From positions 1 through 43,040 of IMG/VR virus record IMGVR_UViG_3300037423_001974: a DNA stretch of 43,040 nt; one strand, written 5' to 3'. Shown here one piece after another: positions 17,985-18,713 of this stretch. Below the pieces are notes generated by a model that saw only the letters and a program-made list of their open reading frames with translations, had not been told where the DNA came from and did no database searches. Origin of the DNA: a virus. Its lineage: Duplodnaviria; Caudoviricetes. How positions within the stretch are numbered: the first letter of the stretch is position 1; each line of letters opens with the position of its first letter. A program made the translations under genes and the position numbers.

Positions 17985-18007
17985 AAAAAAGCCGCCCGAA
18001 GGCGGCT
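17985..18007 (-). terminator. Rho-independent terminator for the pilin transcript (possibly bidirectional)
   Basis: AAAAAAGCCGCC-CGAA-GGCGGCT. On the minus strand this is a GC stem with a UUCG loop followed by a U-tract. Confidence 0.8.
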
Positions 18008-18078
18008 GTGAGCGTTACCTGTTCCCGAGCTTCCCGGCCCGAGCTGTGGCCTTATGCCGGCCCTCGCTGAGAATCCTA

Positions 18079-18573
18079 TCAGCCCTTGCAGGAGCCCGGC
18101 AGGTACTTCGGGTCGATGCCGTTGGCGGTAGCCGGGCCGCACCTGAAAGCGCCGACTTGAGTGCCGCCGATGCTCGCGGCGGTCAGGGGCGTGCCGCCGG
18201 ACGTCTCGGGCACGAGCTGGATGCTCTTGCCGGCAGCGGTGCCGAGATCAGTCAGGTTGGTCAGCAGCACGGTAATCACGCCGTCGGCGTTAGTGGTGAC
18301 CGTGGAGACGTATTTCGAAGACCCGCCGGCAGTCGTTTGCTCACAGCCCCAGCCGTTGATGCCGGGAGGCGTGCCGGGGTTGCCGGATTGATAGACCTCA
18401 GCGACCGCGGTGCGGCACTGGCTGGTGCCCAGGATGCCTTCCGACACCTTCGCCTTGATGGTGTAGGTCTGGTAGGCCGGCAGCGCAACAGCCGCCAGGA
18501 TGCCGATGATCGCCACGACGATCATCAGCTCGATCAGGGTGAAGCCCTTTTGCAGGGCGCGGGTCGTGCGCAT
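18079..18573 (-). CDS. pilA: Type IVa major pilin
   Basis: Class III signal [28 protein letters not shown] with Glu+5. C-terminal disulfide loop C...KYLPGSC. RBS AGGAG. Confidence 0.95.
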
Positions 18574-18619
18574 GAGGTGTATCTCCTAGAAAAGCCGCGG
18601 TGAATGGGCCGGCAGTATG

Positions 18620-18635
18620 TGCATGGCCTGTGCCA
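18620..18635 (-). promoter_or_regulatory. Sigma54 (RpoN) -24/-12 promoter of pilin
   Basis: Minus strand reads TGGCACAGGCCATGCA (GG-N10-GC), 46 nt upstream of the pilin ATG. Confidence 0.85.
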
Positions 18636-18672
18636 CCGCAACAACGTGAAAAACTCCCACCTTCACCGATGC

Positions 18673-18713
18673 ATGTGACACGTCGTGTCACATCGGGCGA
18701 CAAATCGCGTCGC
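18673..18713. promoter_or_regulatory. Two tandem palindromic enhancer boxes (putative PilR-type activator sites)
   Basis: Perfect inverted repeat ATGTGACACG-T-CGTGTCACAT (18673-18693) and GCGAC-N7-GTCGC (18697-18713), with the same GAC-N7-GTC geometry, upstream of the sigma54 promoter. Confidence 0.65.

Follow-up and report, generated by a model that had tools for sequence, protein, structure and literature searches.

The question raised by this locus is what a temperate tailed phage does with a gene for a type IVa major pilin in a genome in which no pilus assembly gene was detected. Type IV pili are common receptors of phages. The window, by which we mean the whole stretch of 43,040 nucleotides that was analysed, represents a single circular temperate tailed phage with a 127-nt terminal repeat, and the scan of its 48 main ORFs identified head, tail, endolysin, integrase, repressor, terminase and portal genes as well as a CII-like gene. 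The IMG/VR contig L001 is 99.98% identical to the window over 9743 nt including the pilin region (2 mismatches).

An intact major pilin next to a mutS-type attachment site

The pilin gene (18079..18573, minus strand) encodes a prepilin of 164 aa, which gives a mature protein of 154 aa; the assignment is based on the ORF, on Pfam and PDB matches and on the predicted fold. The protein matches the families Pilin PF00114 (E 4e-13, 50.6 bits), N_methyl PF07963 (E 9e-10) and TIGR02532, and the leader QKG/FTLIE is short and basic, with a G/F cleavage site and Glu at +5. Cysteine residues are present at positions 53, 77, 145 and 162, and the C-terminal pair C145 and C162, which is invariant across 12 close relatives, corresponds to the D-region cysteine pair of type IVa major pilins. 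By sequence as well as by predicted fold, the best solved relatives are the Neisseria major pilins (PilE); the model (pLDDT 87; TM 0.69 to 5vxx) combines a long alpha-1 with a beta-sheet globular domain. A prepilin motif occurs once in the six frames of the window, in the pilin itself, and the scan of the 48 main ORFs revealed no further pil gene. The gene is an intact type IVa major pilin of the P-PilA kind, located inside a phage genome without assembly genes. An intact 164-aa PilA with this leader, Glu at +5 and four Cys, unaccompanied by any other pil gene, is what the original prediction had read from the DNA, and both statements hold. The identity of a minor tip pilin of the P-FimU kind was also considered and rejected, because of the PF00114 and major-pilin matches and because the nearest relative is a chromosomal sigma-54-dependent pilA.

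The late operon ends in the endolysin gene and the gene for a 197-aa lysis-adjacent protein (phrog_6637; together 16803..17971, plus strand), which are convergent with pilA. A 13-nt direct repeat with 14-nt spacing at 17963-17989, where the last stop codon of the late operon meets the pilA terminator, is possibly an insertion scar. The tail genes end (13839-16187, plus strand) with those for a protein that contains a LamG domain and for another of 519 aa, which has a Pro-Ala linker and matches GHL15 weakly. Both are candidate sugar-binding parts, and the matches of the 519-aa protein to the PDB are confined to the linker. Immediately 3' of the integrase gene, a HEPN-domain gene (20646-21158, plus strand) is possibly a defence moron.

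Upstream of the pilin, the attP core (19020..19045, minus strand) matches the HTPMMQQY codons of mutS in up to 24 of 26 nt; compared with 17 mutS starts, 20-24 of the 26 nt are identical. The core translates as HTPLMQQC in the phage and as HTPMMQQY in host mutS. The adjoining open frame (19046..19159, minus strand) is supplied by the phage and would, on integration, become the new 5' end of mutS. CTACGC/ACCTACGCC repeats flank the core on both sides (18968..19262) and are probable arm sites of the integrase, a tyrosine recombinase with an arm-binding domain that belongs to a mutS-targeting group (19263..20588, plus strand). Repeats of the CTACGC type also adjoin a related integrase in L059, where the integrase is divergent from the mutS start. 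Close integrases were found in 17 of 401 genomes sampled around Ideonella, and 7 of 18 such loci abut mutS. As judged from these matches, the phage probably integrates at the 5' end of mutS, at the HTPMMQQ motif. Contigs of the sequencing runs X1-X6 contained no attL or attR junction, and in a contig of X4 the core is spanned as attP; a related attP, integrase and 57-aa ORF are present in this run, whose contigs do not cover the variable part of the pilin, a gap from which nothing follows. The dusA gene, a guess based on the short ORF 19142-19285 (cf. the part of PMC4482086 available), was rejected as a target because the core matches mutS.

The location of the attachment site bears on the trivial explanation that the gene is a host pilA that adjoined attB and was picked up by faulty excision, or that it was misassembled. 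The identity of 90% to a chromosomal pilin would fit this explanation. However, attP is intact and matches mutS, and it is flanked on either side by arm-like repeats. The mutS motif was absent from 119 host pilA loci, with flanks of 1.5-5 kb and in some cases shorter, and mutS and the best pilA lie on separate contigs in all 10 genomes checked. Moreover, the close host pilA loci have a Wzy_C ligase gene downstream (12/15) and a cAMP phosphodiesterase gene upstream (11/15; 30 of 45 neighbour ORFs scanned), and the second assembly, L001, agrees with the first. Since attP matches mutS while host pilA sits elsewhere, faulty excision is rejected, and an artefact of either kind is scarcely credible.

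A host-type control region

The pilin gene has its own control elements, with a promoter laid out as in host pilA genes. The RBS AGGAG (18583..18587, minus strand) lies 9 nt ahead of the ATG. Upstream of it stands a -24/-12 element of the GG-N10-GC type, the sigma-54 consensus TGGCAC-N5-ATGCA (18620..18635, minus strand), which is the sole strict match in the 43 kb, where 6 loose matches were also found. Further upstream, a proximal GTGAC..GTCAC palindrome (18673..18693), a probable enhancer, is followed by a distal GCGAC..GTCGC palindrome (18697..18713); a TGT-N11-ACA motif spans 18686-18702. Palindromes of the GTGAC/GCGAC type have 5 matches in the window, 3 of which lie within 18675-18713, and they may be bound by a PilR-type activator. 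Downstream of the gene, the terminator scan and folding identified an intrinsic terminator-like hairpin with a U-run (17984..18007, hairpin 17990-18007, minus strand; folding energy of a 40-nt stretch, -14.8 kcal/mol). Thus, the RBS, sigma-54 promoter, enhancer palindromes and terminator that had been postulated could each be located, and the view of the gene as a self-contained, host-type cassette in a moron slot is supported.

The spacing between the proximal palindrome and the sigma-54 site is 56 nt in the phage and 57 nt in the host loci L070, L258, L294 and L296. A spacing of 57 nt was observed in 4 of 31 host loci, among them the closest relative of the phage pilin, and most of the others range from 98 to 110 nt. 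From 93 genome, 21 metagenome and 72 viral pilin loci (this phage included), a survey took those whose upstream sequence was 250 nt or longer; a sigma-54 site was found upstream of the pilin in 60/91 genome, 14/16 metagenome and 24/69 viral loci; the site together with a palindrome was found in 25, 6 and 8 loci, respectively. Shuffled sequences gave expectations of at most 0.32 for the site and at most 0.01 for site plus palindrome.

In Pseudomonas aeruginosa, pilA is controlled by PilR and sigma-54 and is subject to PilS-PilA autoregulation, in which PilS directly interacts with PilA, as described in the accessible part of PMC6058289. According to the same text, the P. aeruginosa promoter resembles that of the phage in combining a sigma-54 site with an upstream NifA-like element, whereas its hallmarks are TGT-N11-AGA and GTCT; the phage has TGT-N11-ACA and GTGAC/GTCAC palindromes, like betaproteobacterial pilA loci. 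Of 5 genomes that have close pilins, 4 gave PilS-like matches (PF25323), but these are weak (E about 5e-9) and a Caulobacter control matches too. In L266, genes for PilS and a sigma-54 activator adjoin the pilin. A second route of expression may be provided by the prophage state: after integration, the orphaned promoter of host mutS would be directed towards the 57-aa ORF and pilA, and the terminator scan revealed no terminator-like site between them on that strand.

Origin, allele exchange and spread of phage pilins

The closest relative at the DNA level is the chromosomal pilin of L258 (85% DNA and 90% protein identity), which may not come from the phage's own host. L258 is taken as a chromosomal pilA because its flanks, which look like the end of a phosphodiesterase gene and the beginning of a ligase gene (fragments too short for Pfam), match the phosphodiesterase/ligase layout of this clade. 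The best pilin in the 401 genomes sampled is 73% identical; the scan of genome contigs extended to 3 of 64 parts. Alpha-1 is identical to that of L258 in all 54 positions, and the 17 differences among the 154 mature residues all fall into the globular part. The pairwise values, which include the host branch, are dS 0.57, dN 0.054 and dN/dS 0.095. The promoter and terminator have diverged from L258 in sequence and have kept its layout. These comparisons show that the phage pilin derives from the host pilA clade, and a dS of 0.57 disfavours very recent copying from the L258 allele. The comparison with chromosomal pilA genes that had been called for thus yielded a nearest allele that is 90% identical.

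Several short contigs appear to come from sister phages with the pilin in the same slot. Cluster look-ups assigned relatives of the 57-aa ORF to four contigs (1703, 1705, 4237 and 1156 bp) and the pilins P0006, P0128, P0129 and P0010 to contigs of precisely the same four sizes; the linkage of these genes rests on the matching sizes of the contigs and not on a reading of their DNA. The 90% cluster of the 197-aa neighbour likewise has members on the 4237- and 1705-bp contigs; P0133 shares 187/195 residues with the window, and P0228 clusters along with it. The 57-aa relatives are identical to the window in 56/57 residues (50/57 for P0123). Taken together, flanking proteins are 96-98% identical and alpha-1 of the sister pilins is conserved in 53/54 residues, whereas the globular domain retains 69-77/100 residues: 69-71/100 on the 4237- and 1705-bp contigs, and 77/100 and 69/100 on the 1703- and 1156-bp contigs. 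Moreover, leader and body types are reassorted: P0129 combines the leader type of the window with a P0010-type body, and P0128 has the leader of P0006 and a P0010-type body. From these patterns it looks as if sister phages swap pilin alleles in the same slot.

The 57-aa ORF (18738..18911, minus strand), which has a hydrophobic N-terminus and two Cys, lies between the promoter and attP and travels with the pilin cassette. Neither this ORF nor mutS as the target of attP had been noted in the original prediction. The family had no Pfam, PHROG or NCBIfam match, its Atlas matches reached only 0.81, and a search returned three matches plus one weak viral match at L271. The ORF is missing from the 119 host pilA loci and is possibly a second moron or a partner of the pilin. 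In run X4, the leader of the ORF (18914-18944 in the window) seems to be doubled and separated from attP by other sequence several hundred bases long, which suggests that an extra cassette occupies the same slot there.

Beyond the closest relatives, the pilin does not belong to the constant gene set of the phage group. It was found at none of the 17 other related endolysin loci, nor in L142 or L058-L060, and it was absent from the integrase contig of all 7 mutS-linked elements, three of which have more than 280 kb of contig sequence on the side of the element. The expectation of conserved synteny with a hypervariable C-terminal domain was therefore borne out in part: the globular domain varies among apparent sister phages, but the order lysis genes, pilA and int does not extend past the closest relatives (0/17 endolysin loci).

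Pilins are nevertheless common in viral contigs. Relatives of the pilin were encoded by 253 viral stretches, of which the best 80 were kept, and another search returned 56 loci; the loci fetched yielded at least 72 distinct full-length viral pilins, which come from unrelated contigs, and truncated pilins also occur in viral contigs. Their neighbours are phage genes or have no match, with no pilus assembly gene among the 125 ORFs plus 205 of 219 ORFs scanned, a scan from which four near-duplicate loci were omitted. The slots differ: viral pilins are found beside the repressor (L003, L005, L178, L198, L205, L209, L234, L241), lysis genes (L004, L012, L016, L033, L044), terminase (L007, L028, L169, L171, L172, L203), tail genes (L024, L181, L242) and, in T4-like contigs, clamp-loader genes (L002, L008, L194, L206). 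A quick tree of 198 pilins requires 35 changes of the viral label, at least 8 of which are forced by well-supported branches, with deep branches poorly resolved. The viral pilins thus appear scattered among host pilins, a pattern that points to repeated capture or exchange. When the pilin was compared by tblastn with a collection of cultured phages, nothing matched at an E threshold of 1e-3 or of 10, which is not read as absence since Table S3 of PMC12952977, a source consulted in part, names such phages.

Individual loci deserve mention. In a prophage lineage (L005, L173, L178, L196, L198, L205, L209, L232-L234, L241, L244), a sigma-54 pilin lies near the repressor; the globular domains of 13 pilins of this lineage are 17-94% identical (median 25%), and L244 has two pilins in tandem. 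The full-length pilins of L007, L028, L169, L171, L172 and L203 lie on the same strand within packaging/head operons, where no sigma-54 site was detected, and may be expressed late. In L013 (1-495), a full-length pilin adjoins a resolvase and a Zot-family gene and is probably part of a filamentous phage. The pilin of L033 (5750-6459) follows a lysozyme gene and has a sigma-54 site with three near-identical enhancer palindromes. The viral sigma-54 pilin of L168 (987-1469) belongs to the same broad clade and is 57% identical to that of the window.

Possible functions and relation to known systems

We favour the reading that the phage pilin is built into host pili together with the host subunit and alters the surface to which phages bind, and we give it an even chance of being correct. 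In a lysogen, host RpoN and a PilR-type activator would transcribe the phage pilin alongside host pilA, and the host prepilin peptidase and assembly machine would process it, as is suggested by the identical alpha-1. Should PilS respond to the total amount of pilin in the membrane, as it does in P. aeruginosa, transcription from both promoters would be reduced, and through this feedback the phage pilin would take the place of some host subunits and not simply add to them. The altered fibre would reduce the adsorption of competing phages, and the competition would drive allele exchange in the slot. Support for co-assembly comes from the host-equal promoter layout, the purifying constraint, the major-pilin fold, the alleles of sister phages, the scattered viral pilins and the precedent of P-FimU, which enters pili and protects against F10-like phages according to the available text of PMC12952977. 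Several points count against it. The surface change could be small because 17 of 154 mature residues differ from the nearest chromosomal pilin, and mixed fibres would retain host subunits. The tail tip of the phage is GTA-like, with Rhodobacter and Caulobacter phages as the closest relatives (about 25-37%), and the LamG domain and the weak glycosyl-hydrolase match could indicate a sugar receptor for this phage. Moreover, the partially consulted literature reports that host pilA transcription was unchanged in a P-FimU lysogen (PMC12952977) and that the pilins of the archaeal virus SNJ2 serve another virus as receptor and do not block it (PMC12426801).

The last finding leads to the view that the pilin benefits the host without any role in defence, by changing adhesion, biofilm formation, twitching or DNA uptake, or by supplying a receptor for a partner phage. 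The SNJ2 pilins use host machinery, dominate the surface, promote biofilm formation and motility and are receptors for SNJ1, as stated in the accessible part of PMC12426801, and the intact host-like protein and host-type promoter would fit such a role equally well. However, globular turnover between flanks that are 96-98% identical would be more typical of an arms race over recognition, and lysogen fitness is unlikely to apply to the T4-like contigs with pilins beside clamp-loader genes, so that we regard a benefit of this kind as unlikely. The reverse outcome, a net shutdown in which membrane-held phage pilin poisons assembly or represses host pilA via PilS and leaves few pili, could draw on the direct PilS-PilA interaction in P. 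aeruginosa (PMC6058289, seen in part) and on the alpha-1 shared with the host. Truncated phage pilins with such a proposed action have been published, as far as the text of PMC12952977 was available, and truncated forms are also found in the viral contigs. Yet a full globular domain with four Cys under purifying selection would be needless for a membrane decoy, and a promoter subject to that feedback would hold down the amount of its own product, which makes shutdown quite unlikely. Among the three actions that had been proposed for the pilin, namely coating or replacing the host fibre, poisoning assembly and down-regulating host pilA, poisoning is the least favoured.

A near-neutral passenger is very unlikely in our estimation. 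The gene would then be an allele reservoir that recombines with host pilA in the invariant alpha-1 and a vehicle for pilA alleles between hosts, as might be expected from its nesting among chromosomal-type pilins, from the reassorted leaders and bodies and from its lack at 17 of 17 other related lysis loci. On the other hand, the promoter and terminator have diverged from L258 and yet retain the layout, dS from the nearest host allele is 0.57, and the slot is apparently retained in four sister contigs. Returning to co-assembly, a bolder and rather unlikely extension would be a pilin serotype switch: a major pilin wired into the host RpoN/PilR/PilS loop would displace the host subunit, and its globular domain would be swapped via the invariant alpha-1 with other phages and host pilA, as a widespread exclusion system acting on the main pilus receptor. 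If this were true, dozens of unrelated phages would take part in the system, and phages would both drive and carry pilA diversity.

Comparison with known systems places the phage next to several described elements, each known to us from part of the respective paper. Elements that integrate into mutS target HTPMMQQ and supply new mutS start sequences, and some of them are prophages (Chu et al., PMC5296598); imprecise excision of such an element gave rise to a mutator in Vibrio (PMC5296598). The phage shares the predicted integrase specificity and new mutS start, but differs in its pilin, a cargo that is lacking in the passages available and in the 7 mutS-linked elements checked. The temperate virus SNJ2 of Natrinema sp. 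J7 likewise encodes fibre-forming pilins, PilA1 and PilA2, that use host machinery, and these proviral pilins form the dominant filament (PMC12426801). In contrast to the phage, SNJ2 is archaeal and has two pilins, which favour biofilm formation and are used as a receptor by a virus resident in the same cell. P-FimU of F10-like P. aeruginosa prophages is also a prophage-encoded subunit that works on the host machine, for which receptor masking is the model; it is a minor tip pilin with a predicted -35/-10 promoter and a demonstrated effect, as described in PMC12952977, whereas the subunit encoded in the window belongs to the major pilins and its gene has a sigma-54 site.

The closest known counterpart is P-PilA, which has been described for five prophages of Xylella fastidiosa and for virulent phages of Vibrio, Aeromonas, Synechococcus and Pseudomonas (Sztanko et al., PMC12952977, as far as accessible). 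The original prediction had set an alternative major subunit supplied by this phage against the FimU-like minor pilins reported from prophages; in view of P-PilA and of the archaeal viral pilins (PMC12426801), both taken from partial texts, a major pilin encoded by a phage is not new. What appears to be new is the exchange of pilin alleles among apparent sister phages and the captured sigma-54 wiring, for neither of which a paper was found in the openly accessible literature; the literature search also returned no paper on feedback by a heterologous pilin. The accessible text of PMC12952977 leaves open whether a phage major pilin protects the lysogen. The cassette lends itself to a simple swap experiment on this point, since its promoter is predicted, its pilin has a host counterpart of 90% identity and several natural alleles apparently exist. 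Like the pilin of the window, P-PilA is PilA-like, comes without assembly genes, and its proposed action is to become part of the pilus and so prevent adsorption. According to the same partial source, P-PilA is about 50% identical to the chromosomal pilin, compared with 90% here, and the present phage further differs in its host-type sigma-54/enhancer region, its apparent allele exchange, its Burkholderiales-type affiliation and its targeting of mutS. As the viral loci that were fetched contain no fewer than 72 different pilins of full length, the survey suggests that the strategy is far commoner than the published handful of examples.
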